From Trueperaceae bacterium (lineage in GTDB: Bacteria > Deinococcota > Deinococci > Deinococcales > Trueperaceae): 64,000 nucleotides of DNA. The stretch spans positions 32,001-96,000 of the forward strand of contig JBBDRK010000043.1 in NCBI GenBank assembly GCA_040905465.1. The letters are read 5' to 3'. Numbering within the stretch: position 1 is the first letter of the stretch; each line of letters starts with the position of its first letter. Below the pieces are notes generated by a model. That model saw nothing but the letters and a program-made list of their open reading frames with translations, made no database searches and was not told the DNA's origin. Of this stretch, positions 19,367 through 49,452 are shown one piece after another. Position numbers and translations under genes: made by a program.

Positions 19367-20047
19367 CTACCGCCGCTCGCGCGGCTCGCCACCGGCCGCG
19401 ATCGCCGACATCAGTATGGAGGCGCGCTCCCCGACATTTCCCCGACGGAACAGGGCGCTTCCCGTCACGAAAACCTCGGCACCGCTCTCTGCCAGCTCCG
19501 CTATGTTGCTTTCGTCGACGCCGCCGTCAACCGAGATCAGGAACTCGGCACCTCGGGCTCGCCTCATCTCGGCGGCTCGTCTGACCTTCGACACGGCATT
19601 GGGGATGAAGGATGCGCCGCCGTAGCCAGGATTGACGCTCATTATGAGCAGGACGTCGATTGCCTCGACCAATTCCGCTATCGCTTCTACCGGTGTAGCG
19701 GGATTGATCGCGAGTCCGGCCTTCCGGCCCGCCTGACGGATTTTGGTCAAGTGCCTATGGTGGTGTTGGCCGGCCTCCATATGGATGGTCACCCAGTCCG
19801 CACCAGCGTCGATGTAGGTGTCGATGTAGTATTGCGGCTCCGTCAGCATCAGATGGACGTCGAACACGGCGTTTGTGAGGGGTCGGAGCGCTGCTGCCGT
19901 GTCGGGCCCAAAGGCGATGTTGGGGACGAAGTGTCCGTCCATTGCATCTATGTGGAAGTGGTCGATGCCTTCATCGAGTGCGGCACGGAGATCCCGTTCG
20001 AGATTGAGCGGATCGGCGCCCAGCAGCGACGCAGCCAAACGCTTCAA
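19367..20047 (-). CDS. rpe: Ribulose-phosphate 3-epimerase family (copy 1)
   Basis: HIDAMDGHFVPN, DVHLM, MSVNPG, SVDGG; TTG start. Confidence 0.9.
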   Translation of the reverse strand: MKRLAASLLGADPLNLERDLRAALDEGIDHFHIDAMDGHFVPNIAFGPDTAAALRPLTNAVFDVHLMLTEPQYYIDTYIDAGADWVTIHMEAGQHHHRHLTKIRQAGRKAGLAINPATPVEAIAELVEAIDVLLIMSVNPGYGGASFIPNAVSKVRRAAEMRRARGAEFLISVDGGVDESNIAELAESGAEVFVTGSALFRRGNVGERASILMSAIAAGGEPRERR

Positions 20048-20619
20048 GGTCTCCGCCGGCCTTCCGTGCCAAGTCGGTCGCGCCGCCGTTCAACCGTGCC
20101 GTGCCGGCCGGAGTTCAGGCGAAACGAGCAAGTTCGTACGCTTGCGATCATGAACTGTGCACCTCCTCGCCTTTGCCCTCGAGTCACACAATCCCCTATT
20201 CGGAGAGAGCGGACCGCTGTCCCAGTCGCAGTGTACACTTCTCCGCTCGCCGCCCTCGAACCGGCATCCCCTCAAGGGTCGGCGGCCGAGGGGCGAGGCG
20301 GCCTGTTGCACCTGCCAGGGCCCACGAGTTGATTGCGTCGACTTCGGCATGCTCGGATGTGATCATCTGTGCACAGGCGAACCGACGCGGTTTCTTCCGG
20401 TGGAGTTGTGGGCCAACATGAACTTTCGTTACGTCACTCGTATCCCGCACCGTTCGACCGAGTGTTGTGGATTTGCATTGGCTGGCGTGCAGGACAGGAA
20501 CAACCTGCGTCACGTGCCTCTCGCCGAACCGTTCGGACGGTGGCAGGCCAGCTCCCCCAAGGCAGCCACGGTGGCTGTTTCGAGCGTTCCTCGGCGCCTC
20601 CGAGGGCGAAGGGCATCTG

Positions 20620-20649
20620 TGGACAAATATGGCCACAGTCTGATAGGCT
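20620..20649 (+). promoter_or_regulatory. Putative sigma70 promoter for the ABC-kinase-epimerase operon
   Basis: TGGACA-18 nt-TAGGCT with extended TG. Confidence 0.4.
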
Positions 20650-20778
20650 TTGAGCACTCAGCAGGATGTTTCTAGTTGGCCCGGACACCGCGGTAAGTCC
20701 GATTCAGGTCCAGAGGAGGGGACGACTACACCGGTAGAGAGATGCTGAGGACGCTTCGCTCAGGATAGAGGAGGAGTC

Positions 20779-22278
20779 GTGAAGAGAACCTTATTTATCG
20801 TGCTCGTGTGCCTTGTGCTGGTGCCTTCGTTCGCGTTCGCACAGAAGACGCTGAGATTCGGCATCCCGGTCGACCCGATCAATCTCGATCCGGCCCAGAT
20901 GAGTCACATGGTCGCCCACCGCTTCGTAGCCTTCATGTACCCGAGCCTGTTGCAGTACGACAACGAACTGGCCCTGATACCCGACCTCGCCGAGAGCTTC
21001 CAGATCATAGACGACACTACGTATGAGTTCACGCTTCGCGACGGGATCACGTTCCACCACGGTGAAGAGATAACGTCGGAACACGTCAAGTTCTCGATCG
21101 AAAGGCTTCTGGACCCTGCCGTTCCCTCACCTGAAGCCTTCGAGCTTGCACCGATCACCGAAGTCGAGATTATCGATGATCGCACCTTCCGGCTGGTCAC
21201 CGAGGAGCCGTTTGCCCCGATTCTTCACGGGATCGCCTTCGGCCTGGGCATTCACTCGCCGGAAACGGTCGAGCAGTTCGGTGACTTGCGGTTTCAGGGC
21301 TCCGGTACCGGACCCTTCCAGCTCGTCGAGTACCGGGCGGATGAGATCGTGATCTTCGAGAGATACGAAGGCTACGACGGACCGCAGCCGGCGCTCGATC
21401 GCATCGAGTTCCACGTCATAGCCGACGATGTCGCGCGTTCGACCGCACTGACCGCCGGCGACCTCGACGCCGCACGATTCCTGTCGACGCGGGCTGTCCT
21501 GCCGCTGCGCGGCGTACAGGGACTGACGGTGAACTACACGGGTCAGCCCTCTATCAGCCACTTCCATCTGAACACGCGCCGCGAGCCGTTCGATGACCAG
21601 CGTGTCCGGCTGGCGATGAGCTGCGCATTGGATCGGCAGGCTATCGCCGATATCATCTTCAGCGGCGATGCCGAACCGACCGGTCCGATTCCTCCCTCGA
21701 TGGGTGCCTGGGCGCTTCCGGTCGAGGAGTTCGAATGCTACACCCAGGACCTGGATCGCTCGCGTGAACTCCTGGCGGAGGCAGGTTATCCGGACGGCTT
21801 CTCCAGCACCATGATCGGCAGAGCCGACAACAGCACCGACATCGATCAGTTGCAGATGATGGCCGAGCAGTTCGCGCAGGTCGGAATCGACATGGAGATC
21901 CGTCAGATCGAGTGGGGCGAGATGCTCGACCTCTGGATAACCCAGAAGAACTTCGACACTCTGCTGATCGGTTCCTCTACCGGTCGCGATCCGGACGCCA
22001 ACTTCTTCCGGCGATTCCACTCCGAGTCGGACAGGAACACCGTCGGCTACGAGAACCCGGAAGTCGACGAGCTGATGGAACGGGGCCGCACCACGATCGA
22101 CTTTGATGAGCGCTACGAGATCTACGCCGAGCTCCAGCGCATCATCACCACCGATTCACCCAAGATCTTCACCGTCCAGCTTCCCCTCTACGACGTGTTC
22201 TGGGACCATGTCGAAAATTGGGAGACTCATCCCATGGGCATGTACTACTTCCTCGACGAGGTAGACCTCCAAGAGTAG
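20779..22278 (+). CDS. Family 5 ABC substrate-binding protein
   Basis: GAGGAGGAG RBS, signal peptide ending AFA-Q, FTLRDGITFHHG, GTGPF, RVRLAM. Confidence 0.93.
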   Translation: MKRTLFIVLVCLVLVPSFAFAQKTLRFGIPVDPINLDPAQMSHMVAHRFVAFMYPSLLQYDNELALIPDLAESFQIIDDTTYEFTLRDGITFHHGEEITSEHVKFSIERLLDPAVPSPEAFELAPITEVEIIDDRTFRLVTEEPFAPILHGIAFGLGIHSPETVEQFGDLRFQGSGTGPFQLVEYRADEIVIFERYEGYDGPQPALDRIEFHVIADDVARSTALTAGDLDAARFLSTRAVLPLRGVQGLTVNYTGQPSISHFHLNTRREPFDDQRVRLAMSCALDRQAIADIIFSGDAEPTGPIPPSMGAWALPVEEFECYTQDLDRSRELLAEAGYPDGFSSTMIGRADNSTDIDQLQMMAEQFAQVGIDMEIRQIEWGEMLDLWITQKNFDTLLIGSSTGRDPDANFFRRFHSESDRNTVGYENPEVDELMERGRTTIDFDERYEIYAELQRIITTDSPKIFTVQLPLYDVFWDHVENWETHPMGMYYFLDEVDLQE

Positions 22279-22285
22279 GGGCTGT

Positions 22286-22325
22286 TGCGTCTGGCGCCGG
22301 CCGATCTGAACCGGTGCCAGACGCA
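22286..22325 (+). terminator. Stem-loop after substrate-binding gene
   Basis: TGCGTCTGGCGCCGG-10 nt-CCGGTGCCAGACGCA (one G-U pair). Confidence 0.65.
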
Positions 22326-22342
22326 CCTTCATATCTTCAGTC

Positions 22343-23296
22343 ATGTTGATCTATACGGCCCGTCGGTTCCTGCAACTCACCCCGTTGCTCCTCGGAGTCA
22401 TCCTTGTCGTGATGCTTCTGCCACGGCTGATTCCTGGCGACGTGGTAACGATCATGCTTGGCACCGAGTCCGTGATATCGCCGGAACGGGCTGCCGAGAT
22501 GCGAACTCTGCTCGGCCTCGATCGGAGTTTGCCACAGCAGTACTGGGACTATCTCACCGATCTGGCCCAGGGCGATCTGGGGAGGTCTCTAAGAACCGGG
22601 CGTCCGCTCGGTCCGGTGATCGCAGACCGGTTTCTTCTCAGCGCCAATGTGGCTCTGTTGGCGCTCGCGATGGCCATCATCGTCGGAATTCCACTGGGTG
22701 TTCTCGGCGCCCGCCACCGGAGGTCGCGCTTCAGCGTGTTGCTGCAGACCTTCAATCTCCTGGGGTTATCGCTACCTACCTTCTGGACCGGAACGATTCT
22801 CCTGCTCGTCGCTACCTTCTATTTCGACGACGTCTTTCCGACGATCGGATCGGCCGGTGCCGGTGCACCGTGGTACGAACACCTGCGCTATGCGTTCCTG
22901 CCGAGCCTCACTCTGGCGATCCCCGTTGCCGCGGTGCTGGCTCGAATCACCCAGTCGGCAATGATCGAGGTGCTGGCACAGGACTACATTACGGTTGCAC
23001 GCGCCAAAGGCGTTGCTGAGCGGCTGGTTTTCTACAAGCATGCGTTGAGGAACTCCTTGATCCCGGTCGTCACCGAGCTGGGCTTGCAGGCAGGACTCAT
23101 TCTCGGCGGGGTCGTGACGATCGAATTGGTCTTCTCTTACCCCGGGATCGGATTACTGGTGCTGACCGCCATCGGTCAACGCGACTATCCGATCCTCCAG
23201 TCCGTTCTCCTGATCGTGAGCTTCCTGTTCTTCGTCATAAACTTCCTGGTCGATCTCTCCTACGCCTTGCTCAATCCGCGGATCACCTACTCGTGA
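22343..23296 (+). CDS. Dpp/Opp ABC permease (B-type)
   Basis: DYITVARAKG, HALRN, YPGIG, NPRI. Confidence 0.93.
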   Translation: MLIYTARRFLQLTPLLLGVILVVMLLPRLIPGDVVTIMLGTESVISPERAAEMRTLLGLDRSLPQQYWDYLTDLAQGDLGRSLRTGRPLGPVIADRFLLSANVALLALAMAIIVGIPLGVLGARHRRSRFSVLLQTFNLLGLSLPTFWTGTILLLVATFYFDDVFPTIGSAGAGAPWYEHLRYAFLPSLTLAIPVAAVLARITQSAMIEVLAQDYITVARAKGVAERLVFYKHALRNSLIPVVTELGLQAGLILGGVVTIELVFSYPGIGLLVLTAIGQRDYPILQSVLLIVSFLFFVINFLVDLSYALLNPRITYS

Positions 23297-24144
23297 CCCA
23301 CAGACGCTGGCGACTCATGACCAAGCCCTTCAGGCAGAGCGCCGAGCTGTCTATCGGCACGTTCATGCTCGTAGGGCTTGCCGCGCTGTTCCTGGTAGGC
23401 CCGTCTCTGGCACCCTATCCGCCATCGCGCATGGGCGTGGGACCTCCGTTCGCGCCGGCGTTCGAGAGTGGACACCTGTTGGGCACCGACGAGCTCGGGA
23501 GGGACGTCCTGTCGCGGGTCGTGCACGGCACGCGCTACTCGCTCCTGGTCACCCTCGCGTCGGCGGTCCTCGCCACGGTGGTAGGCGGCTTCCTCGGGAT
23601 GCTCTCAGGGTACTACTCGGGTTGGCTGGACATCGGGGTCATGCGCCTGGCAGACCTGCTGCTGTCGTTCCCCGGGCTCCTGTTGGCGATCGTGATCGTA
23701 GCCATAATGGGACCCGGCATCACCAACACCGCGATCGTGATCGGCGCAGTGTACGCTCCTCGCGTCGCCCGCATCAGCCGTGGTGCCGTGTTGGCGGCGA
23801 AGGAGAATGACTACGTTACCGCCGCCACCGCCCTCGGCGTGCGCTCGCTGAGGGTCCTCATGCGGCACATCCTTCCCAACATCCTGCCCACGGTCGCAAT
23901 CTATATGAGCCTGCTCCTTGCATACGGGCTCCTCTTCGAAGCCTCGCTGTCGTTCCTGGGCCTGGGCGTGCAGCCGCCGTTGCCTTCATGGGGCGGCATG
24001 CTGCGCTCTGCCCGCACGTTCATCCAGATCGCCCCCGGCCTTTCGATCTGGCCCGGTTTGGCGATTCTGTATGCGGTGCTGACCTTTTTCTTCCTTTCCG
24101 AAGGCCTTCGTGCCGTTCTGGACCCGAGGCTTCGCGATCGGTGA
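23293..24144 (+). CDS. Dpp/Opp ABC permease (C-type)
   Basis: HLLGTDELGRD, LSFLGLGVQPP, DPR. Confidence 0.93.
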   Translation: MTHRRWRLMTKPFRQSAELSIGTFMLVGLAALFLVGPSLAPYPPSRMGVGPPFAPAFESGHLLGTDELGRDVLSRVVHGTRYSLLVTLASAVLATVVGGFLGMLSGYYSGWLDIGVMRLADLLLSFPGLLLAIVIVAIMGPGITNTAIVIGAVYAPRVARISRGAVLAAKENDYVTAATALGVRSLRVLMRHILPNILPTVAIYMSLLLAYGLLFEASLSFLGLGVQPPLPSWGGMLRSARTFIQIAPGLSIWPGLAILYAVLTFFFLSEGLRAVLDPRLRDR

Positions 24145-24187: not shown

Positions 24188-25720
24188 ATGAACGTATGGG
24201 TTCTCTCGCTCGATATAGGCACCACCTCTGTGAAGGCGGCGGCCGTTACGCTCGATGGGCAGTCGCTCGCTTCAAGGACCTCCCCGTACCGCACCCACCG
24301 GCCGCGCCCGAACGTAGTCGAGCATGATCCGAACGACTGGTGGGCGGCGACCCGAAAGGCCTGTGCCGAGCTGTTCGGCGCCTCCGGTGTCGAGCCGTCG
24401 GACCTGGTCGCCGTCGGGCTGAGCGGGATGGCGGCCACGCATGTGCTGCTTGGAGCCGACGGTGGCCTGATGGGTCCCGCCATCATCTGGCAGGACACCC
24501 GGGCAACGCGTGAAGCAGCTCGGTTGAATGAGCAACTTGGCGAAGATGGGATTCGCGCCGCACTCGGGTCCGGCATCGGCATGACGGCCTCGATGCAGGG
24601 CGCCCGCATGCTGTGGCTGCACGAAAATGCGCCCGAACTCCTGGCTGGAACGCGCCACATCCTGGGCTCGAAGGATTACCTTCTCTACCTGCTCACAGGG
24701 GAGCTGGCCACCGATAGGACCTCGTGCAGTGGCTTGTGCCATATTCTTACCGGGGAGTTGCATGCGGCGATGGCGAGCGCGACCGGCGTCGATGCAAGCC
24801 TCCTTCCGCCACGGCTGGACCCGACAACCGTCGGAGGTCGTGTCACAGCGGGGGCGTCTCGCGCAACGGGCATTCCCGAGGGGACACCGGTTGCGGTGGG
24901 AATGATCGACTCCTGGTGCAATATCCTTGGCGCCGCCGTCACCGATCCCGGCGACGCGTTCGATACCGCCGGCACGGCGGAGGTCGTAGGTGTGGCGGCT
25001 GCCGCCAACTCCAGGCTGGCCCAGACGTCCGAGCGCCAGTTCCTCACCGAGGTGGCGCTGTCGTACGGTGTCACCCAGTGCGGAACGGACGCATTGACCT
25101 GGTACGGGGAGGTTTTTCCTGAGCATGGTGCCGATGGCGCCCAGCTCGGTGAGGATTCGCTCTATCGTCATCTGGATGGCCTGGCGGACTCGGCTGCCCC
25201 CGGAGCCGACGGACTGATCTTCCTCCCATACCTGCAGGGGGAACGGGCCCCCTTCTCGGACTCCCGCGTACGGGCCGGGTTCCACGGGGTTCACCGGGGT
25301 CACCGCCGTCCCGATTTCGTCCGTTCTGTGCTCGAGGGAGTCGCTTTCAGCGTGCGTCATGTCCTGGAGGCGCACGAGGAGCTCGGTGAGGTCCAGGCAA
25401 GTCAGGTAGTGGTGACCAGTGGCGGATCGAAGAGCCGGCTGTGGAACCAGATCAAGGCGGACGTGGTGGGCCGGCCGTTCGCCAGCCTCGAAGTCAGCGA
25501 CGCCGGGTCGGTCGGTGCCGCTATACTCGGCGCGGTTGCCGTCGGACGGTATTCGATTACGGAGGGGGTAGAGCGAATGGTCCGTATTGCCACCGTGTCC
25601 GAGCCCCAGCCGGGGCTTCGCGACCGATACGACGAACTCTACGGGTTGTATCTGCAGCTCGGCACGACGTTGCGAGACGTCCATCATCGGATCGCCGACT
25701 ATCAGGCACGGGAAGGGTGA
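24188..25720 (+). CDS. FGGY carbohydrate kinase (xylulokinase-like)
   Basis: LDIGTTSVK, AIIWQDTR, LPYLQGERAP, VLEGVAF. Confidence 0.92.
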   Translation: MNVWVLSLDIGTTSVKAAAVTLDGQSLASRTSPYRTHRPRPNVVEHDPNDWWAATRKACAELFGASGVEPSDLVAVGLSGMAATHVLLGADGGLMGPAIIWQDTRATREAARLNEQLGEDGIRAALGSGIGMTASMQGARMLWLHENAPELLAGTRHILGSKDYLLYLLTGELATDRTSCSGLCHILTGELHAAMASATGVDASLLPPRLDPTTVGGRVTAGASRATGIPEGTPVAVGMIDSWCNILGAAVTDPGDAFDTAGTAEVVGVAAAANSRLAQTSERQFLTEVALSYGVTQCGTDALTWYGEVFPEHGADGAQLGEDSLYRHLDGLADSAAPGADGLIFLPYLQGERAPFSDSRVRAGFHGVHRGHRRPDFVRSVLEGVAFSVRHVLEAHEELGEVQASQVVVTSGGSKSRLWNQIKADVVGRPFASLEVSDAGSVGAAILGAVAVGRYSITEGVERMVRIATVSEPQPGLRDRYDELYGLYLQLGTTLRDVHHRIADYQAREG

Positions 25721-25795
25721 AGCGGTGCTAAAACTCGAAGCCGGCACATCTTGCCCTCCAATCGACGCGGCACATGCACTGTCTGGGGGAGGCTC

Positions 25796-26494
25796 ATGGC
25801 CAGGCTAGCCGCGTCGCTTCTCGCTGCCGACCCCGGGCGGCTGGCAGAGGCAACGATAGCCGCCGACGAGTTCGGTATACCCGTATTGCACCTCGATGCC
25901 GTCGACGGCCACTTCGCCAGGTGGATAGCCTTTGGACCTGATACGGTCGCCGCCCTGCGCCCGTTGTTCAAGGGCTTCTTCGATGTGCACCTGATGCTCA
26001 TGCAGCCGGAGCGGCACATCGAGCGCTATGCCGAGGCCGGAGCGGACGGGATGACGGTTCACCTCGACGCTACCCTTCACCATCATCGGCACCTCGGTTC
26101 GATCCGCAAGCTCGGCTGCGAAGCGGGCGTGGCTATCAGTCCCGGCACCCCGATCGAAGCCGCCCTGGAGCTGTTCCAGCTCGAGTCGGTCGATCGCCTG
26201 CTCATCATGAGTGTCAATCCCGGATTCGCAGCGGCACCGTTTCTGGAGAATCTGTTGCGGAAGGTCGACCGTGCCAGACGGTTACGGGACGAAAACGGGT
26301 GGCACTTTCAGATATCGGTCGATGGCGGGATGAACATTCAAAACGTCGGGCCGGTCGTCGATGCCGGGGCCGACGTTATAGTCAGCGGCAGCGGCCTCTA
26401 CTCCGGTCCGTCGTTCGCAGAGAGTGCCAGGGCCCTGATGGATGCCCTCGAGCAGCGGTTTGATGAAGACGGTCGGCGCGATCAGGCGGTATAA
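25796..26494 (+). CDS. rpe: Ribulose-phosphate 3-epimerase family (copy 2)
   Basis: HLDAVDGHF, DVHLM, MSVNPG, SVDGG; GGAGG RBS. Confidence 0.88.
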   Translation: MARLAASLLAADPGRLAEATIAADEFGIPVLHLDAVDGHFARWIAFGPDTVAALRPLFKGFFDVHLMLMQPERHIERYAEAGADGMTVHLDATLHHHRHLGSIRKLGCEAGVAISPGTPIEAALELFQLESVDRLLIMSVNPGFAAAPFLENLLRKVDRARRLRDENGWHFQISVDGGMNIQNVGPVVDAGADVIVSGSGLYSGPSFAESARALMDALEQRFDEDGRRDQAV

Positions 26495-27276
26495 CCGCCG
26501 TCGACGGCCAGGATGGCTCCGGTAGTGTATCCGGCGTCGTCACAGGCAAAGTAGGCGATGGCCGCTGCGATCTCCTGCGGTGTCCCCAGTCTGCCGGCGG
26601 GCCGCGTCGCATAGCGTGCCAGAGCGGCCTGCGGATCGGGGGTGAGCGCCACCGCGTTCAGAACCATGGGCGTACGCGTCGTTCCAGGGCAGACGCAATT
26701 CACCCGCACGCCGTCATCGGCCAGATCGAGTGCCATGCAGCGCGTGAGCTCGACCACGGCCGCCTTGGCTGCACAGTATCCCGCCAGCCCTCGTATTCCT
26801 TTCAGGCCCGCCTCCGAAGAGACGTTTACGATGGCGCCGCGGCCCTGCCGCTTCATGATCCGGGCCCCTTCACGGGCGCAGTAGAACGTCCCGGTGAGGT
26901 TGACAGCTATCAGCTCGTTCCACACGTCGCTGGACGTCTCGTCTGCAGCGCCGCGCGTCAGCAGCCCGGCCGAGTTCACGAGCACCGTAGGAGAACCCAA
27001 TCGCGACTCCACTTCGGCAAAGGCGTTCTCGACGCTGCCGTCGTCGGTCACGTCGCAGCGAACCCACTCACCCTGCGGAGCATCGCTCGGCAGTCGTCGC
27101 AGAACTTTGCGTGCCGCCTTCTCGTCGCGGCTGAGTATCGCCACTCTGGCACCGGACGAAGCGAGCAGTTCGGCGGTGGCCGCGCCTATACCGCTCGAGC
27201 CGCCGACCACCACTGCTACATGGCCCGCGAAGTCGTAGCGTATTGAAGCCCGAGCCGTTCCTTGCGATTCCGTCAT
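26482..27276 (-). CDS. Short-chain dehydrogenase/reductase
   Basis: GGSSGIG, NSAG, YCAAK, VDGG. Confidence 0.92.
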   Translation of the reverse strand: MTESQGTARASIRYDFAGHVAVVVGGSSGIGAATAELLASSGARVAILSRDEKAARKVLRRLPSDAPQGEWVRCDVTDDGSVENAFAEVESRLGSPTVLVNSAGLLTRGAADETSSDVWNELIAVNLTGTFYCAREGARIMKRQGRGAIVNVSSEAGLKGIRGLAGYCAAKAAVVELTRCMALDLADDGVRVNCVCPGTTRTPMVLNAVALTPDPQAALARYATRPAGRLGTPQEIAAAIAYFACDDAGYTTGAILAVDGGYTA

Positions 27277-27302
27277 GAGCAAACCTCCGCCGTCCACGGC
27301 GC

Positions 27303-34479: not shown

Positions 34480-34619
34480 ATTTACTCCGGTTTACAGTAT
34501 GGCACGGCCATGGTAGCTTTTGCTCGGAGTCGCACATCTTCGCGCAGTTGCTCATAGGTCATCATGGTCTTCGTGTCGTCGATTCGGGTACCGCAAAGCT
34601 GTTCGGAAGGAGAGAAGGG

Positions 34620-36482: not shown

Positions 36483-36655
36483 AACGATTACAGCGCGAAG
36501 TGAACCTGAGTGATCATCGAGGACCCGAAAGGGGGTACCGGCTGGTCAAGACATCCACAGCAGGCCATCGGTGTGTCCACATTCGAGGTAGTAGCTCGTG
36601 CCCTTTGGGAAACCAGGCAGTTTACGACCGAATCGCAAGCCATAGGAGTCGAAAC

Positions 36656-38345: not shown

Positions 38346-38425
38346 ACACTGTGAAGTCTCATGCTCCGAACTTGGTATTTTGACGCAGGGCCAGTCACCG
38401 AGCTGGCAGATTGCAACGGGAGCCG

Positions 38426-39367: not shown

Positions 39368-39409
39368 TGCAACAGCTCTGCCTTCCAAGCCAACCGGAAG
39401 GATCCTCCA

Positions 39410-40312: not shown

Positions 40313-40471
40313 AGGTTTACCCGGTTCGCCGCCGAGCACCCGGACGGTACCCGGCATTCTCGGAGTGGACGCAGTTCGCGCGAATAAGTCGCAAGTCGGG
40401 GAGCAGGCCGCCGATTGCCTGCTCCAGCCGGCCTGCGAGTCGCGGCGACGCGAGATGGAAAGGGGAAACGG

Positions 40472-42034: not shown

Positions 42035-42061
42035 TGCGGTTGACCGCGAATTCCGGACAAC

Positions 42062-43330
42062 ATGAGTGATGCTCGGCATCGTTCGCGTGTCGTAGCCGGC
42101 TCACCATTTTTCTACGGTTGGATGATCCTCGCCACTGCGACCGCCAGCATGTTCATGACGCTGCCCGGCCAGACCGCCGGAATAGCGGTGTTCCTGGAAC
42201 AGATCATCGCCGACTTGACGCTGCAGCGCACCACGGTATCTCTGCTCTACCTGATCGGAACGCTCATTGCGGCCTTTACGCTGACCTTGGTGGGATGGGC
42301 GATCGACCGGTACGGTCCGCGCAGAGCCGCCAGCGGAATCGTGATCCTGTTCATTTGCGGTTGCCTGGTCATGAGCTCGGCAACGGGGCCGTTGTCGCTC
42401 CTGCTGGGGCTCATCCTGGTCCGCGCATTCGGCCAGGGGGCCCTGCCGCTGGTGAGCATGCATAGCGTGAACCTCTGGTTCATTCGGAACCGCGGAATGG
42501 CGGTCGGGATTGCAGGACTGGGAATCGCCCTCGGCACTGCGGCTTTCCCTCCGCTGATCGAGCTGATGATGGGGAACTACGGCTGGCGAACGACCTACGC
42601 CATGCTCGGCGGTCTAATTGCATTGGTCGTGCTCCCGCTGGTGGTGACATTCTTCCGAGACCATCCAGAAAGCTACGGCCTGCTACCCGACGGGGACACG
42701 GTCACGTCCAGACGGGAAAATGAGCACCGAGCCGACGACACAGGTAGCGAGCCGGCTCTTACGCTGCCGCAGGCACAACGAACCGCAACGTACTGGCTGT
42801 TCGTTCTGGGCGGGGTGGCGGTGTCCTGTTTCGGCACTGCACTCGTATTCCATCACTACGCGATCATGACGGCGAACGGGGTAGATAGAACAGTCGCGGC
42901 CCTGATGTTCGTTCCCTTCGGGATCGCCATGGCGACGTCCAACCTGCTTACGGGCCTCGCCATGGATCGTCTGGCGCCACGTTACCTGTTGAGCTTCAAT
43001 CTCGCACTTCTGGTGACCGCCCTGGCTTGCGCCAGCAGGGTAGACAGCCCGGCTTTGGTAATAGCCTACGGAGTAGGAATCGGTGCCCTACAGGGAATGC
43101 ACGGAGCCTTGCAGGCGGGCGTGTACGCCCACTACTTTGGCAGGCGCCATCTCGGTGTCGTCAGGGGATTCGCGAGTACGCTGTCGGTCGGCGGCTCGGC
43201 CGCCGGGCCGTTTCTCTTCGCCCTCGGCTTCGATCTGTTCGACGACCAAGTCACTACCTTGGTGGTGGCCACCGCGGTGCCGCTGGTGATCGCAGTTACG
43301 GCCCCATTCCTGAAACCGGTGCGAGCGTGA
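42062..43330 (+). CDS. MFS transporter
   Basis: About 12 hydrophobic segments, FFYGW, GWAIDRYGPRR, WFIRNRG. Confidence 0.9.
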   Translation: MSDARHRSRVVAGSPFFYGWMILATATASMFMTLPGQTAGIAVFLEQIIADLTLQRTTVSLLYLIGTLIAAFTLTLVGWAIDRYGPRRAASGIVILFICGCLVMSSATGPLSLLLGLILVRAFGQGALPLVSMHSVNLWFIRNRGMAVGIAGLGIALGTAAFPPLIELMMGNYGWRTTYAMLGGLIALVVLPLVVTFFRDHPESYGLLPDGDTVTSRRENEHRADDTGSEPALTLPQAQRTATYWLFVLGGVAVSCFGTALVFHHYAIMTANGVDRTVAALMFVPFGIAMATSNLLTGLAMDRLAPRYLLSFNLALLVTALACASRVDSPALVIAYGVGIGALQGMHGALQAGVYAHYFGRRHLGVVRGFASTLSVGGSAAGPFLFALGFDLFDDQVTTLVVATAVPLVIAVTAPFLKPVRA

Positions 43331-43420
43331 GCGAACGCAGAGCTGCACTCGAGGAAGTTACGCCGGCCGGGAGCAGACGGCTTCCGAAAACGAAGGTCGA
43401 ACTGGTTGAGAGGGAGGCAT

Positions 43421-44305
43421 ATGAGCACAGAAGGTAGATCGTTGCGCCTCGCCATAGTCGCCGACATTCATCACGGTCCGGATGCCCCCCCGAAGCTGGG
43501 GAGCAGGGCACTTGGCCTGTTGAATGAGGTGATCGACGAAATAAACGAGAGAGCTCCTGACCTGGTGGTGGATCTTGGAGATCGCATCAACGATGTGGGC
43601 AAGGAGGATGACGAGCGGCTGTTGGCCGAGGTGGCGGATGCCTTCTCTCGTCTGCGGGTGCCGGTTCGCCACCTCTTGGGTAATCACGACGTCGCACGGC
43701 TCTCCATAGATACCACCGAATCCCTGCTGGGTGCGACGCTCGACCACCAGAGCCTGGAGCTGAACGACTGGCACCTGGTCTTTTGGCAGGTCAACAGTGC
43801 GTTTCGCGGTGGCGACGGGCTTCAGATAGACGAGAGCGACTTTCTCTGGCTACAAGAGGAGCTCGCCGTAACCGATCGACCCACTGTGGTATTCACGCAT
43901 GCGCCCCTGGACAACGGGCCGATGGTGGGGAACTACTACTTCGAACCCATGCCTCCTCAATTCTCGGGTTACGCCAACGCAGAGCGCGCTCGCCGGTTGA
44001 TGGAGAGGAGCACGACGAGCGTTGCCGTCGCCGGCCACGTACATTGGAACTCAGCCAGGACGATTCACGGCATCCACTACCTGACCGTCCAGTCGCTGTC
44101 CGAGTGCTTCACCACCTATCCAGAGCCGGCCCGGGCTTGGGCCGAGCTGACGTTGGGCGAGCGGGTCTCGCTCGACGTTCACGGCACGGATGAGATGCGG
44201 GTGCAGTTGACGCCGCGGCGGGGCAGTAGCCAGTGGCTCACCAGAAACACGAGACCTAGCGAGTGGGTAACCGTCGGAACCAGCCGCCGGAGGGGCAACG
44301 GATAG
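43421..44305 (+). CDS. Metallophosphoesterase (calcineurin-like)
   Basis: ADIH, LGD, GNHD, FTH, GHVH; GGAGG RBS. Confidence 0.9.
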   Translation: MSTEGRSLRLAIVADIHHGPDAPPKLGSRALGLLNEVIDEINERAPDLVVDLGDRINDVGKEDDERLLAEVADAFSRLRVPVRHLLGNHDVARLSIDTTESLLGATLDHQSLELNDWHLVFWQVNSAFRGGDGLQIDESDFLWLQEELAVTDRPTVVFTHAPLDNGPMVGNYYFEPMPPQFSGYANAERARRLMERSTTSVAVAGHVHWNSARTIHGIHYLTVQSLSECFTTYPEPARAWAELTLGERVSLDVHGTDEMRVQLTPRRGSSQWLTRNTRPSEWVTVGTSRRRGNG

Positions 44306-44380: not shown

Positions 44381-45772
44381 TCAGTTTTGAGCATTTCGGT
44401 CGAGTTCGGCCAGGGCAGCGATGATTTCGAGGGTGGAATGGACCCCCAACTCGAAATGATCCAGCCGGAGATTCTCATTCGGACCGTGATTGTTCTGATC
44501 GTGGTGGCCGTAGCTCAGGACGATTGGCTTGGCCTCGAGTGCAGTTAGGAACCCCGCGGCGGGCAGGCTTCCGCCCAGTGACGGATAGACCAGAGGCTCG
44601 CTTTGCCAGGCCCTTGCCAATGAAGCGAGTACGGCGGTAGTTGCGTGATCGCTCGGCTCTATCCGATACGGAGTCATTCGGGCCAGATAGTTCACGGTGG
44701 CTTCCGGCTCGAGCCGCCGAATCTCGCTTGCCAGGAGTTCAGCTATTTCGGTGGGATCCTGATCGGGCACCAGCCTGGCATCGAGTTTCAGGACAGCCTT
44801 GGACGGGATGACCGACTTCATCCCCGTTCTGGTATAGCCCGAAGCGATTCCACTCACGTTCAGATTCGGCTCGAACATGATCCGCCGCCAGTATTCCAGG
44901 TTATCGGAGATGGACGGTTCGAGCGCCCGAACCCCGATGGTTCGCCTGAATCCGGCTGCGGAGAATGGGATGGCGCGGGCCAACTCGACTTCGGATCGTG
45001 ACGGCGCCCGCACTCTGTCGTAAAAACCCGGGGCGTTTACGGTTCGGTCGGTTCCGATGAGGTTGGAGATGAGGCGAGAGAGCGCAACGGCGGGATTCGG
45101 CGTTACTCCGCCGTAGGTGCCGGAATGCTGGTCGGTCTCGGCGTTACGTAGAGAGACTTCGAGGTATACCAGGCCACGGGCGCCGAAGACGGCAACGGGC
45201 CTGCCGCTCGGATGACCCGGGCCGTCGGCGATCAGAACGAGGTCCGCGGCGAGCCGCTCCCGCTGGGACTGGAGAAAGCTGTCGATGTTCGGTGAGCCTG
45301 TCTCTTCTTCACCCTCGAGCAGGACAGTTACATTCACCGGAATGTGAGCATCGGCGGCAAGGAGGGACGCGATCGCTGCGATATGGGCGTAGAATTGCCC
45401 CTTGTTGTCGCTGGCCCCCCTTGCATAGATCCTCCCGTCGCGAACGGTGGGGGCGAACGGGTCCGACTGCCACTCCGGCTCGTCAGCCGGCTGGACGTCG
45501 TAGTGACCGTACAGCAGCAGGGTGAACCGGTTCCCAGGACGCTCGTACTCTCCGATGACCATCGGAGCGCCGTCGGTAGCGATGGTCGATGCACGGAGGC
45601 CGGCTTTCTCGAGCAGGGTCCGCACCAGTTCGGCGCACTCGGGTATTCCCTCCCCGGTCGTGCTCACGCTCCTCTGAGCCAACAGGGCGAAGAGTTGCTC
45701 CAGGAAGGATTCGCGATTGCTGGAGAAGTACTCCGATGCTGCTGCCGTTTGGCTTCGGCTACTGTCTGTCAT
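44381..45772 (-). CDS. M20 family dipeptidase/deacylase
   Basis: YGHYDVQP, RGASDNKG, EGEEETGS, HSG, HGPNE. Confidence 0.9.
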   Translation of the reverse strand: MTDSSRSQTAAASEYFSSNRESFLEQLFALLAQRSVSTTGEGIPECAELVRTLLEKAGLRASTIATDGAPMVIGEYERPGNRFTLLLYGHYDVQPADEPEWQSDPFAPTVRDGRIYARGASDNKGQFYAHIAAIASLLAADAHIPVNVTVLLEGEEETGSPNIDSFLQSQRERLAADLVLIADGPGHPSGRPVAVFGARGLVYLEVSLRNAETDQHSGTYGGVTPNPAVALSRLISNLIGTDRTVNAPGFYDRVRAPSRSEVELARAIPFSAAGFRRTIGVRALEPSISDNLEYWRRIMFEPNLNVSGIASGYTRTGMKSVIPSKAVLKLDARLVPDQDPTEIAELLASEIRRLEPEATVNYLARMTPYRIEPSDHATTAVLASLARAWQSEPLVYPSLGGSLPAAGFLTALEAKPIVLSYGHHDQNNHGPNENLRLDHFELGVHSTLEIIAALAELDRNAQN

Positions 45773-45966
45773 GATTCGATCGCTCTCTCGATCATCGGGC
45801 GCAGGACCGTACACGCGTCCGTACCGGGTGTCCTGATGCGATAGTGACGGAGTTCGACTGTCGGCTTCGGCGAATCGTTTCCGGCCGCTCTACTCGCGAA
45901 CGGAATCCCCCTTTCAAAGATGGTCATAGCGTAGGCGTGGGCGGCTCTCCTGTCCCGATCTCGAGA

Positions 45967-46629
45967 TCACCTGAGCAATTCTGTGACCTCGTCGGCCACC
46001 GTCCTGGCCAGTACCGCGTGAGCTCCCGCATCGAGGTGAACGCCGTCGTGTTCGCTCGCCTTGACGTGCTGTGCAACGTCCAGGAAGTCGCACCCGTGCT
46101 CCAGGGCGACTTCTCGAAGGCTTGCTCCCAACTGGCGGGACTTCTTCTCGGCACCGTCGAAGAACTCCGCGAACTCGCTGAGCCTACCTATCAGCGGGGG
46201 AGAGAGTAACAGTACGCCAGGACTATCCTGCGCGGGACCGCTCGCACTGGAGAGGATGACTCCGATAAGCCGGGAGACCCCGAGTGCGATCTCCTTCGGT
46301 GAAAGTGAGAAGCGCGCCTTCAGGTCGTTGGTGCCTAACATCAGCAGCACCAAGTGAAGGGGAGCGTGCGAATCGAGGCACGGCAGCAGGTAGTCGATCC
46401 CTTTGCGCCCCGGTTGCAGGGGATCTTCGAATACTGTCGTCCTGCTGTTGAGCCCCTCCTCCACTACATGGACCTTGCTGCCTAGCAACTCCTGCAGGAC
46501 ACCGGTCCACCGAATCCGTCGCGGGAAGCGTTCCTTGGTATTCGGATCGAAGCCCCAAGTGTTGGAGTCGCCATAGCACAAGACGGTGCGTTCGAACTCG
46601 ACGCTCTCGCTCCCTCCTGCTGCTGTCAC
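45967..46629 (-). CDS. SGNH/GDSL hydrolase (arylesterase-like)
   Basis: GDSNTWG, EGLNSRTT, LGTND, DGVH. Confidence 0.92.
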   Translation of the reverse strand: MTAAGGSESVEFERTVLCYGDSNTWGFDPNTKERFPRRIRWTGVLQELLGSKVHVVEEGLNSRTTVFEDPLQPGRKGIDYLLPCLDSHAPLHLVLLMLGTNDLKARFSLSPKEIALGVSRLIGVILSSASGPAQDSPGVLLLSPPLIGRLSEFAEFFDGAEKKSRQLGASLREVALEHGCDFLDVAQHVKASEHDGVHLDAGAHAVLARTVADEVTELLR

Positions 46630-46644
46630 TTCACCCGATCCGAA

Positions 46645-47748
46645 CTAACGGCTGAAGTCGAAATCGGCCGACACCTTTGGAATGAACTCGGAAAGCAGGT
46701 CGATGAGCCCTTGCACGTCACCGAGGTGGCACATCTCCGCCGGGGAGTGGGAGTAGCGCATCGAGAAGCTCAGGTCTATCGTAGGGGTGCCGCCGTTTTC
46801 CAGCTGAACGTACGAGCCTTCGGTAAGCCCGCCGAAGAAAGCGCTTCGTTGCAACACGAGTCCGTCCTCCTCGGCACTGCGGCTTATGGCGCGAACCAAT
46901 GCCGGGTGGGGGACGAGACCGTTGAGGGTGCCGCGGCCGTGAAAGGAGTAAAGGTTCATCGCCGGGCCCCCGCCCATCCTCACGTCGTTGCTGCCCGCAA
47001 GGTCAGGGGTATCGCCAGGCACGGTGCCGTCTACACAGAGTGCAATGGCCGGCCGGAGTGCATGGGCTACCGGCGCGGCGCCGCGCAGGTTGAACTCTTC
47101 CTGAACGGTGGCAACGATGTGAGTCGTGGCTTTGGGTCGGTTCTTGGCTAGCCGCCTCAGGGTCTCGAGGACCGCCAGGCAACCGCCACGGTTGTCGATG
47201 AAGGTCGCCGTCACCGTGTCGTTCGCGAGCCGCTGGAATTGACCGGTGTAGGTAATCGGGTCACCCGTCTGGATACCTGCTTGCTGAACTTCTGCCTTGC
47301 TCCGCGCACCTATGTCGATGAACAGTTCCTGGAGGGGAGTAACCTTGTACTTCTCTTCGGGCGGTGTGACGTGGTGGGCCTTTATCCCTATAATGCCTGG
47401 AATGTCCTTGCCTCGGCTGTTGGTGATGGTGATCTTGGTCGCCGGGAGTACTTTTTCCGGTATGCCCCCCAACCGATAAACTCTGATGAAGCCGTCGTCC
47501 TCGATCTTCCGGACGATGAATCCCAGCGAGTCCATGTGGGCGGAGACCATGATACTTGGCGCATCGGCGTCGCTACCGTTTACGGTAGCTATTACGTTGC
47601 CTAGCGTATCCGTGTAGACGTTGTCCGCATGGGGCCTCATCTTCTCGCTCATGAACGAAGCTACGCGCTGCTCGTGACCAGCGAGTCCGGGCAGCGTAGC
47701 CAGGGTCTGGAAATCGGTGAGTGCCTCGTCGCTTATGCTCTTGCTCAT
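46645..47748 (-). CDS. sgcX: M42 family metallohydrolase, SgcX-like (copy 2)
   Basis: AHMD, DNR, QEEFNLRG, FHGRGTLNGL, RYSHSP; adjacent to sgcQ. Confidence 0.85.
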   Translation of the reverse strand: MSKSISDEALTDFQTLATLPGLAGHEQRVASFMSEKMRPHADNVYTDTLGNVIATVNGSDADAPSIMVSAHMDSLGFIVRKIEDDGFIRVYRLGGIPEKVLPATKITITNSRGKDIPGIIGIKAHHVTPPEEKYKVTPLQELFIDIGARSKAEVQQAGIQTGDPITYTGQFQRLANDTVTATFIDNRGGCLAVLETLRRLAKNRPKATTHIVATVQEEFNLRGAAPVAHALRPAIALCVDGTVPGDTPDLAGSNDVRMGGGPAMNLYSFHGRGTLNGLVPHPALVRAISRSAEEDGLVLQRSAFFGGLTEGSYVQLENGGTPTIDLSFSMRYSHSPAEMCHLGDVQGLIDLLSEFIPKVSADFDFSR

Positions 47749-47778
47749 TCTATCGTCTCCAGTCCGGAAGCCACGGCC

Positions 47779-48588
47779 TCATCGGATGCTTTCGACTGCG
47801 TCCATGAATCTGCTGACCCTGTCGGGATCCACCGGATTCCAGGTGTTTCCATCCCGCTTGAAGCTCGTGCCCACGATGGCGGCATCGGCTACTTCCATGA
47901 TTGCGTTGACGTTTTCGACTCGAACGCCGGTATTGGCGATGACGGGTATCTCCGGAATCGCCTCCTTGACTTCGCGGATATCTGACAGGTCCACGGCTTG
48001 CCCGGTCATCGGACCTGAGACGCAGATGCCATCGGCGAGACTCGCAAAGACCGCGCTTTTCGCTTTAGCCGCATTCGAGCGCGTGCCGATAGGCGAGGCG
48101 AACTCGGCGTTGATGTTGTACAGGAGCAGGCAATCCGCGCCGAGGTTGGTGCGCAGGCGGACGGCGGTAGCGGCGTCGGGTTGCCACAGGCCCATGTCGG
48201 CGTCGTAGACGCCGGTAAAGACCTCCCGCACGAACCGCGCCCCGGTGGCGTGCGCCAAGGCGACTGATGCCACTGGGTCCCATAGGTAGTTGACGCCGAA
48301 GGGCACACGCACATGTTCCACCGCGCGGGTAACGATTGCGGTCATTGCCGCCAGGCTTTCGGGGGTCGAGCGGGTCAAGTACGGCCGGTCGCCTTCGTTG
48401 CCGAACATGATCGCATCGACACCGCCATTTTGCAGAGCATCGATGTCCTGCACGACCGAGTCGAGGATCCGACCGATACTGCCGCTCTTGTCGTAGAGGG
48501 CGCTTCCGGGCAGGGGAAGCAGATGGGCCATGGCAATGATCGGCTTTCTCTTCCCGAATAGCTTTACGAAATCGTTCAAGACGTTCAC
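47779..48588 (-). CDS. sgcQ: BtpA/SgcQ family TIM-barrel protein
   Basis: IAMAHL..LPG, LQNGGVDA, PFGVNYLWDP, REVFTG, CVSG, ANTGV. Confidence 0.9.
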   Translation of the reverse strand: MNVLNDFVKLFGKRKPIIAMAHLLPLPGSALYDKSGSIGRILDSVVQDIDALQNGGVDAIMFGNEGDRPYLTRSTPESLAAMTAIVTRAVEHVRVPFGVNYLWDPVASVALAHATGARFVREVFTGVYDADMGLWQPDAATAVRLRTNLGADCLLLYNINAEFASPIGTRSNAAKAKSAVFASLADGICVSGPMTGQAVDLSDIREVKEAIPEIPVIANTGVRVENVNAIMEVADAAIVGTSFKRDGNTWNPVDPDRVSRFMDAVESIR

Positions 48589-49358
48589 TCTCCGTTTGCG
48601 CGCGTAAGTTTGATGCCGGCGTCGGTGTAGATGCGTGCCACTTGAGGTTCGAGTCCGGCGTCCGTGATTATCTCGTCGAAGTCATCCAGGTCGCCTACCT
48701 TGGCCAGGCTCCTCTTGCCAAACTTCGTGTGGTCAGCGAGAAGCACTGCCCGTTGTCCACAATCCCTCATCAGCCGCTTGACCGGCACTTCTTCCAATGT
48801 CGCGTTCGTCAGCCCCGCCTCGAGGCTCACGGCGTCGGCACCGATGAAGCTGCTGTTCGCATTGAGATTTGCGAGCGACTCTTCTACGGCGTGTCCGATC
48901 ACCGAGTAGATAGAGGGTCGCACGCTCCCTCCCAGGATGATCACCCCGAAGCCGGGCGTGTCGCACAACTCCAGTGCGATCTTAAGATCACTGGTGATTA
49001 CGGTAATGTCGCGTTTTCCCTTTAGTTCGCGTGCCAATGCCAGGGTCGTGCTTCCGGAGTCGAGAACGATTACTTCCCCATCCGACACCGACCGGGCCGC
49101 AACTCGGGCGATTGCTCGCTTCTGTTCGAGTTGCCTCCCCGCTTTCTCCGAATGCAATGGTTCGAAGGCCGTACTGATATGGGGGAGAACGGCGCCGCCG
49201 TGCGTTCGCTTTATATGCCCCTGCGTCTCGAGCAGGTGCAGGTCACGGCGTATCGTGGCCGGGGAAACGTCGAGGAGCCTGGCAAGATAGGCGACATCAG
49301 CCCCGCCGTTTTCCGTAAGGAGTTCGAGCAGTCTCCGTTTCCTCTGCTCGGGCAACAT
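48585..49358 (-). CDS. DeoR/GlpR family regulator (copy 2)
   Basis: VSPATIRRDL, RTHGGA, LDSGST, ADHTKFG; stop overlaps sgcQ start (GTGA). Confidence 0.93.
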   Translation of the reverse strand: MLPEQRKRRLLELLTENGGADVAYLARLLDVSPATIRRDLHLLETQGHIKRTHGGAVLPHISTAFEPLHSEKAGRQLEQKRAIARVAARSVSDGEVIVLDSGSTTLALARELKGKRDITVITSDLKIALELCDTPGFGVIILGGSVRPSIYSVIGHAVEESLANLNANSSFIGADAVSLEAGLTNATLEEVPVKRLMRDCGQRAVLLADHTKFGKRSLAKVGDLDDFDEIITDAGLEPQVARIYTDAGIKLTRANGE

Positions 49359-49397
49359 AGTTACAAGACCTCAATTCGTGGATGTAATGTAAAAGTC

Positions 49398-49452
49398 TGA
49401 TTATTTCTGGCTATTAATGCTTATCTTACGATTGGCGTTTATGGGCTGTCAA
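49398..49452 (-). promoter_or_regulatory. Promoter for the deoR-sgcQ-sgcX operon with overlapping 10-bp-period repeats
   Basis: Minus strand TTGACA (49452-49447), 18 nt, TAAGAT (49428-49423); plus strand TGATTATTTC TGGCTATTAA TGCTTATCTT. Confidence 0.6.

Follow-up and report, generated by a model that had tools for sequence, protein, structure and literature searches.

We analysed a 64,000-nucleotide (nt) stretch of DNA, hereafter the window, from the genome of a Trueperaceae bacterium (G000; GCA_040905465.1, contig JBBDRK010000043.1; C43:32001-96000), an assembly of 3.53 Mb in 81 contigs that is 95% complete. The listing of open reading frames (ORFs), scanned with Pfam and NCBIfam, places 26 genes within positions 19367-49358, in four transcription blocks. 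Their content recalls the sgc operon of Escherichia coli, which has been without an assigned substrate or chemistry for decades. The region is probably an accessory catabolic island of two paralogous modules (A and B), each a form of the orphan sgc-type pathway that is free of the phosphotransferase system (PTS).

The first block comprises Rpe1, on the − strand, divergent from SBP1-PermB1-PermC1-FGGY1-Rpe2 on the + strand (SBP, solute-binding protein; Perm, permease). The second (−) runs DeoR1-DhnA aldolase-Zn-ADH-sulfatase-SDR3-SDR2-M42_1-SDR1 (ADH, alcohol dehydrogenase; SDR, short-chain dehydrogenase/reductase), the third (+) FGGY2-SBP2-PermB2-PermC2-FGGY3-MFS-metallophosphoesterase (MFS, major facilitator superfamily), and the fourth (−) DeoR2-BtpA-M42_2-GDSL-M20. 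An earlier note on this DNA had listed the two M42 hydrolases, the BtpA protein, two Rpe-family epimerases, two DeoR regulators, two importers, three FGGY kinases, the DhnA aldolase, three SDRs and the Zn-ADH, all of which the scans find where it had put them; it had left five genes unnamed, for the sulfatase, MFS transporter, metallophosphoesterase, M20 hydrolase and GDSL esterase. The halves of the island are paralogous, with identities of 62% for M42_1/M42_2, 57% for DeoR1/DeoR2, 59% for FGGY2/FGGY3, 50% for Rpe1/Rpe2 and 43% for PermC1/PermC2.

The GC content is 0.60-0.65 within the island and 0.64-0.70 outside it. A GDP-mannose-dehydratase-like gene at the right flank is kept in two genomes of the same genus, G287 and G288. 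The 19 kb beside this gene in G287 hold none of the island genes, and the best M42 match of G287 reaches just E 4e-42. Missing from the conserved flank of a same-genus genome and differing in GC content from its surroundings, the island is thus accessory.

Like sgcXBCQAER/sgcR of the KpLE2 island of E. coli K-12, the window has an SgcX-type M42 protein, an SgcQ-type BtpA protein, an Rpe-family epimerase and a DeoR regulator. Unlike the E. coli system, it has no Gat-family PTS, and family-5 ATP-binding cassette (ABC) permeases would import what FGGY kinases phosphorylate. It also has two paralogous modules, its Rpe paralogues do not appear to be SgcE orthologues (Rpe1 is 32% and Rpe2 27% identical to SgcE), and it adds a sulfatase, an M20 hydrolase, a GDSL esterase, a phosphoesterase, an MFS transporter, a DhnA aldolase, a Zn-ADH and three SDRs. 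HPr (PF00381) and Gat-type EIIC (PF03611) had no match in the genome, whose 95% completeness stops short of proving their absence, and the sgc-type modules of the island are PTS-free, as the earlier note had held. It had also called the sgc substrate unresolved, and PMC13343008 (PNAS, July 2026) states that substrate and biochemistry are still to be established. The paper further reports that deletion of sgc leaves growth on 190 Biolog carbon sources normal, and that sgc is induced on nitrogen-containing, slow-growth substrates.

SgcX-type hydrolases and the SgcQ-type barrel

The two metallohydrolases, M42_1 (27303-28418, −; PF05343, E 1.6e-78) and M42_2 (46645-47748, −; E 9.2e-81), are the sole M42 genes of the genome. 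We compared them with the proteins of the E. coli K-12 sgc, frv and fry-ypdE loci. M42_1 is 39% identical to SgcX, 31% to FrvX and 32% to YpdE; M42_2 is 38% identical to SgcX, and both are 29-32% identical to FrvX/YpdE. The bit scores are 259 and 249 against SgcX, 179 against FrvX, and 161 and 147 against YpdE. Alignment reveals three motifs (QEEFN[LI]RG, FHGRGTL and DTPDL) that the window proteins have in common with SgcX and that FrvX and YpdE lack, while a 7-residue insert in FHGRGTLxGL, together with an invariant His126, occurs only in the window proteins, their relatives and SgcX. H270 and R272 are further residues specific to the SgcX type. The residues H71, D185, E217/E218, D240 and H334, which we take to be the two-metal ligands and catalytic Glu-Glu pair of the family, do not vary among the window proteins, SgcX, FrvX and YpdE. 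Since the full M42 hydrolase site is kept, the enzymes would most simply be expected to hydrolyse an amide or ester.

For the M42 phylogeny, we ran a quick IQ-TREE analysis (LG+G4) on 105 rows, made up of both window M42s, three proteins of E. coli and all ORFs of 300-480 residues (aa) from loci L102-L218 that aligned with M42_2 at E<=1e-30 across more than 300 columns; archaeal TET sequences were not included. We excluded shorter and over-extended ORFs. The 21 rows that lack the SgcX motifs (FrvX, YpdE and the generic M42 proteins of the phylum) lie together on one side of a branch with an SH-aLRT support of 99, and the window M42s and SgcX lie on the opposite side. E. coli SgcX, itself a long branch, clusters with the PTS-linked loci L215-L218 (SH-aLRT 99). 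The aminopeptidase equivalogs of NCBIfam did not claim the window proteins, as the best models gave 212.6 and 202.1 bits against a cut-off of 412, and the glutamyl aminopeptidase model 174 and 157 bits against 469.7. A PDB search with M42_2 placed it in the family, near no enzyme of informative specificity. These comparisons support the assignment of both proteins as putative SgcX-type enzymes, not generic TET peptidases. Both motifs on which the earlier note had based this assignment (QEEFNLRG and HGRGTL) are real, and the phylogeny that it proposed as a check puts the proteins in the SgcX clade.

The E. coli frvABXR and fryABC-ypdEF operons resemble the island in holding an M42 gene inside a sugar-uptake operon. 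They differ in that FrvX and YpdE lack the SgcX motifs and the 7-residue insert and fall on the other side of the tree, and in that the operons have no BtpA partner. In G288, the counterpart of M42_2 is 75% identical. This genome also has a third SgcX-type M42 (L132 6000-7100; G288:C37:24006-25097), 69% identical to M42_2, with the SBP2 operon on one side of it and the GDP-mannose-dehydratase-like flank gene on the other; the window lacks a counterpart.

BtpA (47779-48588, −; PF03437, E 2.2e-79; TIGR00259 at 270.6 bits, cut-off 153.4) is a phosphate-binding TIM barrel of the BtpA/SgcQ family; its gene shares a strand with M42_2, which it precedes by 30 nt. It is the nearest SgcQ relative among the sequences compared, being 45% identical to SgcQ, as fits the earlier note's SgcQ assignment, and 31% identical to the second BtpA of its own genome. 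The model for photosystem I biogenesis BtpA (NF045918) gives 186.1 bits, below its cut-off of 400. An AlphaFold2 (AF2) model has a (β/α)8 barrel fold (pLDDT 92.6, pTM 0.92) for which Foldseek returned GGGPS, HisF, TrpA/BX1, TrpF, Rpe, KDPG aldolase and ThiE, and hhalign matched β6-β8 to the phosphate-binding end of Rpe (E 1.9e-4). The modelled fold would fit an enzyme acting on a kinase product; it does not name the reaction. Sequence search of the PDB with BtpA gave no meaningful match (best E 0.24), hence no solved structure, and an ESM Atlas search with PF03437 left out yielded no lead, returning only BtpA-like clusters at low scores. The literature that we found assigns no reaction to BtpA/SgcQ.

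Conserved linkage of SgcX, SgcQ and FGGY genes

We surveyed the neighbourhoods of SgcX-type M42 genes in three samples. The first covered the phylum, with 364 genomes (the unpublished G324 among them) searched with the window M42. Matches are common at E<=1e-40 (233 of the 364 genomes), although only the source genome and G288 have matches above 60% identity; three further genomes reach 42-44%. Modules A and B lie on separate contigs in G288, where module A includes a BtpA of its own and one more DeoR, and no sulfatase, SDR2 or SDR3. In G268, from another genus, a 9.6-kb contig carries DeoR-BtpA-SBP_bac_5-PermB-PermC-FGGY-M42-Rpe, all on one strand. This array matches E. coli sgcR/Q/[ABC]/X/E one for one, with importer and kinase standing in for the PTS. 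Found rearranged in the same genus and compact in another, the gene grouping is not due to chance.

The second survey took metagenome contigs, identified through the SgcX-type alignment and searched by tblastn with window and reference proteins; we used the best 80 of 543 confirmed loci. Among these 80, BtpA is present in 61, FGGY in 53, CUT1-type ABC permeases in 40 and a MalK-type ATPase in 21, while the PTS component EIIC-GAT and DeoR occur in 6 each and GDSL in 2. In the 42 loci where the M42 gene has an upstream flank of at least 1.2 kb and a downstream flank of at least 1.8 kb, 38 have BtpA, 38 have FGGY and 34 have both. The order BtpA>M42>FGGY holds in 51 of the 80 loci, and the median distances between the aligned ends are 32 and 20 nt. 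Other recurrent neighbours are a xylose-isomerase-like barrel (18 loci), an aldo-keto reductase (16) and a PfkB kinase (13), with creatininase-family (9), Amidohydro_2 (8), SIS (7) and SDR (7) genes less frequent.

The third survey, an even sample of 401 Pseudomonadota genomes, found SgcX-type M42 at E<=1e-90 in two. One has the complete sgcXBCQAER array, 54-87% identical to that of E. coli; the other has BtpA-M42-FGGY with CUT1 permeases, MalK and GDSL. PTS and ABC+FGGY forms thus both exist, and the kinase goes with the ABC form, which is a widespread conserved cassette and not peculiar to this window. The alternation is not strict, since loci L189 and L213 hold PTS and FGGY genes together. 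Of the linkage that the earlier note had asked about, then, the sgcQ/sgcX/FGGY part holds elsewhere, in 51 fixed arrays, and a clean exchange of PTS for ABC+FGGY does not. Our literature searches, whose coverage left out most subscription journals, found no paper that connects either BtpA/SgcQ or SgcX with a substrate or with FGGY kinases. The note's central proposal, an undescribed ABC/FGGY version of sgc, is supported by gene content, by likeness to SgcX and SgcQ and by conserved linkage.

Compared with the BtpA-M42-FGGY array with CUT1 genes (metagenome contigs and genome G742), the window shares the three core families, its BtpA being 42-59% and its M42s 39-59% identical. It differs in having the trio split, with BtpA-M42_2 on the − strand and FGGY3 in the transporter operon; in having a family-5 importer without an ATPase gene in place of CUT1 with MalK; and in having a second module with a kinase of another subfamily.

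A further survey, of the best 80 genome loci found with the window BtpA, placed its nearest relatives in Trueperaceae and Deinococcales metagenome-assembled genomes (MAGs). The CUT1 importer is represented by its SBP in 54 of these loci and by MalK in 47. The window shares DeoR, FGGY, SDR and its closest BtpAs with the DeoR-BtpA-FGGY-SDR-CUT1 module found there, which occurs in Alphaproteobacteria (Rhizobium leguminosarum, Dongia, Falsiroseomonas) and some Deinococcales MAGs. This module differs in having no M42, an FGGY of another subfamily (about 32% identical to the window kinases in the alphaproteobacterial modules) and a sugar-type SBP_bac_1 importer. A gamma-glutamyltranspeptidase follows the module in 9 of the 80 loci, as in L056 of R. 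leguminosarum (3582-14050), and a HAD phosphatase is present in 14. Near the alphaproteobacterial modules we also saw a fused SMP-30/isochorismatase gene (7 loci) and a questin-oxidase-like gene (9 loci). In G248:C2, a DeoR-FGGY-BtpA-CUT1...M42 locus has a BtpA ORF of only 180 aa (L134 16138-16680; profile positions 87-253 of 254), which may be truncated or have its start mis-set.

The second BtpA of the source genome is the last gene of its operon (C49:115293-124170; L005 7293-16170), preceded by genes for a GntR regulator, a Peripla_BP_4 SBP, an ABC ATPase, a BPD_transp_2 permease, a 395-aa protein without a Pfam match, a PfkB kinase and a Cof-type HAD phosphatase; a Xre-RES toxin-antitoxin pair lies after the operon. 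This PfkB operon and the BtpA survey together indicate that the constant partner of the barrel family is a sugar kinase, and that M42 is an add-on of some lineages.

Importers, kinases and accessory enzymes

Both importers are family-5 systems. SBP1 (20779-22278, +; PF00496, E 4.3e-80) has an N-terminal classical signal peptide and is followed by the DppB/C-type permeases PermB1 and PermC1 (22343-24144, +; PF00528 in both). SBP2 (36500-38257, +; PF00496, E 5.7e-56) likely starts at 36656, since its signal peptide begins at the Met encoded there, and is followed by PermB2 and PermC2 (38411-40312, +; PF00528 in both). The importer permeases carry OppC_N and BPD_transp_1_N domains. SBP1 has counterparts in G288 (86% identical) and G268 (66%), PermB2 and PermC2 have counterparts in G288 (67% and 75%), and the MFS transporter (42062-43330, +; PF07690, E 1.3e-36) has one there beside FGGY3 (66%). 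The nearest solved relatives of SBP1 are 5u4o (an unassigned SBP), GsiB/YliB, AgaA, DppA and AccA, and those of SBP2 include AccA and AgaA, weakly (79-93 bits); overall the matches of SBP1 and SBP2 to AgaA and AccA are thin, at 79-147 bits. At the position aligned with DppA Asp408, a residue that presumably holds the peptide amino terminus, SBP2 has Pro, and Thr is found both in SBP1 and in its two orthologues; the proteins align at 24-28% identity. This replacement is a weak hint that plain peptides are not what these proteins bind.

The island contains no ATPase genes (ABC_tran, oligo_HPY), and the same gap is found at the importers of G288 and G268. Eight oligo_HPY matches occur genome-wide, at four other loci (on C67, C56, C36 and C17), against at least 14 family-5 SBP/permease sets, and three of the four (C36:7217-8458, C56:95362-96602 and C67:50715-51936) have none of the listed permease matches within some 10 kb. 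From these numbers, the ATPases are presumably shared in trans among the family-5 importers. We rejected the idea that the missing ATPase genes are a defect, since family-5 systems in this genome normally come without ATPase genes. The C36 matches share one 711-aa open frame, possibly a fused double ATPase.

The three kinases are FGGY1 (24188-25720, +; FGGY_N and FGGY_C domains), FGGY2 (34548-36185, +) and FGGY3 (40415-42034, +), the latter two likewise with FGGY domains. In FGGY2 these begin at residue 32 and a GGAGAG motif precedes an ATG at 34621, so that this ATG is likely the true start. FGGY1 belongs to a separate subfamily, 33% identical to FGGY2/FGGY3 and 51% identical to the kinase of the G268 array. 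All three fall below the cut-off of the XylB model TIGR01312 (380.25 bits), FGGY1 at 286 bits and the others at 329 and 330. The nearest solved relative of FGGY1 and FGGY3 in a PDB search is 3ifr, an FGGY of unassigned function, with no informative specificity nearby. For the array-linked FGGY genes of the SgcX-type metagenome loci, FGGY3 is the best window match in 52 of 54 (mean identity 46%), which identifies it, by sequence, as the counterpart of the kinase in the widespread BtpA-M42-FGGY array.

The epimerases are Rpe1 (19367-20047, −; PF00834, E 9.7e-70; TIGR01163 at 248 bits, cut-off 212.6) and the divergent Rpe2 (25751-26494, +; PF00834, E 4e-54; TIGR01163 at 195 bits, below the same cut-off). 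Three Rpe genes are present in the genome, the best-scoring on C69, which is likely the housekeeping copy; for this reason we rejected Rpe1 as the housekeeping epimerase. The oxidoreductases comprise SDR1 (26482-27297, −; adh_short_C2, E 1.6e-64), SDR2 (28475-29206, −; adh_short, E 1.6e-52), SDR3 (29254-30039, −; adh_short, E 6.7e-59) and the Zn-dependent alcohol/polyol dehydrogenase Zn-ADH (31581-32621, −; ADH_N and ADH_zinc_N). The aldolase (32730-33542, −; PF01791, E 2.8e-30) is a DhnA-type class I enzyme of the DeoC/LacD group; its nearest solved relative is MJ0400, followed by archaeal class I fructose-bisphosphate (FBP) aldolase and LsrF, none informative on specificity. Counterparts exist in G288 for Rpe2 (72% identical), SDR1 (70%), Zn-ADH (78%) and the aldolase (83%); at the G288 module A locus there are none for SDR2, SDR3 and the sulfatase. 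The aldolase, Zn-ADH and SDR genes are lineage-specific additions.

The sulfatase (30098-31537, −; PF00884, E 1e-48, and SGSH_C) is of the Cys type, with a CAPSR motif, and is cytoplasmic, without a signal peptide. The calcineurin-like metallophosphoesterase (43406-44305, +; PF00149, E 1.7e-13) has no NCBIfam match, and the M20 hydrolase (44381-45814, −; PF01546 and M20_dimer) scores below the cut-offs of dipeptidase-like NCBIfam models. The GDSL/SGNH esterase (45967-46629, −; PF13472, E 3e-16) has no signal peptide. Its homologues adjoin the array in G288, G742, L183 and L190. An esterase 42-46% identical to it adjoins the MalK ATPase of BtpA-M42-FGGY loci in unrelated bacteria (L225 2241-3955; L183; L190), and this position hints at an O-acylated substrate.

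The repressors DeoR1 (33703-34479, −) and DeoR2 (48585-49358, −; overlapping the BtpA start by 4 nt) both have DeoRC and HTH_DeoR domains. At 31% (DeoR1) and 35% (DeoR2) identity to SgcR, their membership is at the family level only. A repeat search and a reading of the intergenic regions gave no convincing common palindrome as a DeoR operator.

Proposed pathway, rival explanations and neighbouring genes

Gene content, homologies and linkages suggest a pathway in the order of import, phosphorylation, hydrolysis, isomerisation or cleavage, epimerisation and aldol split. The compound bound by SBP1 or SBP2 would be neutral and resemble a polyol or a ketose, and it would probably bear an acyl, aminoacyl, sulfate or phosphodiester decoration. 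It would enter through the permease pairs, using ATPases encoded elsewhere in the genome. An FGGY kinase would then phosphorylate it in the cytoplasm, so that import and phosphorylation, a single step with the SgcABC PTS, would be separate. The SgcX-type M42, whose conserved ligands mark it as a hydrolase with a two-metal site, would remove an amide- or ester-linked group, with the M20, GDSL, sulfatase and phosphoesterase proteins as probable lineage-specific trimming enzymes. The SgcQ barrel would bind the sugar phosphate via the standard β7/β8 phosphate site and isomerise or cleave it, and the Rpe paralogues, dehydrogenases and DhnA aldolase would channel the products into triose phosphates or the pentose-phosphate pathway. 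The DeoR proteins would repress each module until a phosphorylated intermediate appears. The L-ascorbate ula regulon likewise combines uptake with phosphorylation, a metallohydrolase, a phosphate-binding barrel enzyme, epimerases and a DeoR regulator. The likeness is in pathway design alone, as the enzyme families (UlaG, UlaD, UlaE, UlaF) differ at each step.

Several results weigh against this reading. Its last steps, in which the earlier note had the product epimerised and split, lie outside the conserved core, as Rpe occurs in 6, Zn-ADH in 5 and the DhnA aldolase in none of the 80 SgcX-type metagenome loci; the rpe part of the linkage that the note had looked for is thus rare in them. NF005944, which we take to be the SgcE equivalog model, gives the window Rpe proteins 117 and 80 bits against a cut-off of 376, and Rpe1 scores above the cut-off of the ordinary rpe model. 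The two modules of the window have a single BtpA between them, where each G288 module has its own. The closest BtpAs (58-73% identity) have FGGY in 70 and SDR in 57 of their 80 loci, and M42 in one, which is G288 itself; in five alphaproteobacterial genomes with the DeoR-BtpA-FGGY-SDR module, M42 had no match at E<=1e-20. Such M42-free modules imply that the barrel has no need of the hydrolase and that a decoration is not required for the core chemistry. The fold matches of BtpA are generic, none being close (TM 0.55-0.66, 13-20% identity), and the hhalign match to Rpe has a probability of just 48%. The phylum and metagenome surveys ranked loci by likeness to the window protein, biasing the ABC and PTS shares toward its type. 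Lastly, no result of this analysis names the substrate or any reaction.

We tentatively raise the possibility that SgcQ, SgcX and FGGY form the core of a widespread uncharacterised route, in which an aminopeptidase-fold enzyme would act on a phosphorylated sugar or polyol conjugate instead of a peptide and a new phosphate-binding barrel family would commit it by an isomerase or lyase step, E. coli sgc being the PTS-fed form. If so, the soluble binding proteins and kinases of the island would let the substrate be identified. The ABC/FGGY form offers soluble binding proteins, kinases and regulators in place of a membrane-bound PTS, making direct ligand screening possible, and the conserved three-gene core shows which proteins to assay together. 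Were the route solved, an orphan operon of E. coli and two widespread protein families would gain an assigned function.

The intact metal ligands and catalytic Glu pair of the M42s, and the presence of an M20 hydrolase in the island, would also suit a sugar-amino acid or sugar-peptide conjugate of the Amadori, opine or aminoacyl-sugar type, with SgcX freeing the amino acid from the phosphorylated conjugate. The earlier note had put forward this substrate class, which we consider rather unlikely. Neighbouring genes elsewhere lend it some colour, namely gamma-glutamyltranspeptidase beside BtpA-FGGY (9 of 80 loci), an amidohydrolase (6 of 80), and creatininase-family and Amidohydro_2 genes at SgcX-type loci (9 and 8 of 80); the induction of E. 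coli sgc on nitrogen-containing substrates, reported in PMC13343008, is consistent with it as well. The opine binders AgaA and AccA are among the solved relatives of SBP1/SBP2, but at scores that are weak (79-147 bits), and most relatives use CUT1 sugar-type importers (40 of 80 SgcX-type loci, 54 of 80 BtpA loci), which undercuts the argument that the note had drawn from peptide-class transporters. Moreover, the closest BtpA clade is without M42, the commonest partners (SDR, aldo-keto reductase, xylose-isomerase-like barrel) are of the polyol type, and the window has no deglycase-type SIS gene.

It is very improbable that the island is a mosaic of unrelated ordinary operons, in which Dpp-type peptide uptake and M42/M20 peptidases have come by chance to lie beside pentitol/pentulose catabolism. 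Although the best NCBIfam matches of SBP1 are GsiB, NikA and DppA, and family-5 importers are many in the genome, the G268 importer sits within one same-strand array between BtpA and FGGY-M42-Rpe, and the position of DppA Asp408 is Thr or Pro in the window proteins. The FGGY proteins score nearest to XylB (286-330 bits), yet all three stay below its cut-off of 380. Rpe1 passes the rpe model, and DhnA, Zn-ADH and SDR are not conserved with SgcX elsewhere; against this stand the fixed BtpA-M42-FGGY array in 51 loci and the finding that the M42s are of the SgcX type and the genome's only two. We also give little credence to the idea that module B imports a sugar phosphodiester or other esterified sugar, agrocinopine-like, which the metallophosphoesterase and GDSL esterase would open before the kinase and SgcQ/SgcX act. 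Module B does contain both enzymes, GDSL recurs beside the array in G288, G742, L183 and L190, and the best liganded relatives of SBP2 are AccA proteins. Their scores are low (81-84 bits), however, and the unassigned SBPs 4wed and 8vdx rank above them; searches with the window metallophosphoesterase revealed no homologue in G288 or in the 80 metagenome loci, and the window has no AccF-type GDPD enzyme.

Upstream of the island, at window positions 468-5128 and 8490-12766, are genes for a D-2-hydroxyacid dehydrogenase, a GH4 glycosidase and a GFO/IDH/MocA oxidoreductase and, beyond these, a trio of amine oxidase, class-III aminotransferase and aldehyde dehydrogenase genes, the last without a close counterpart in G287 or G288 (39-40% identity). 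Just upstream of the island, at 14553-19261 (−), is a third family-5 importer beside an Amidohydro_3 gene. The SBP ORF of this importer (370 aa, profile positions 14-288 of 368) and the Amidohydro_3 ORF (355 aa, profile positions 1-219 of 472) both look truncated or frameshifted.

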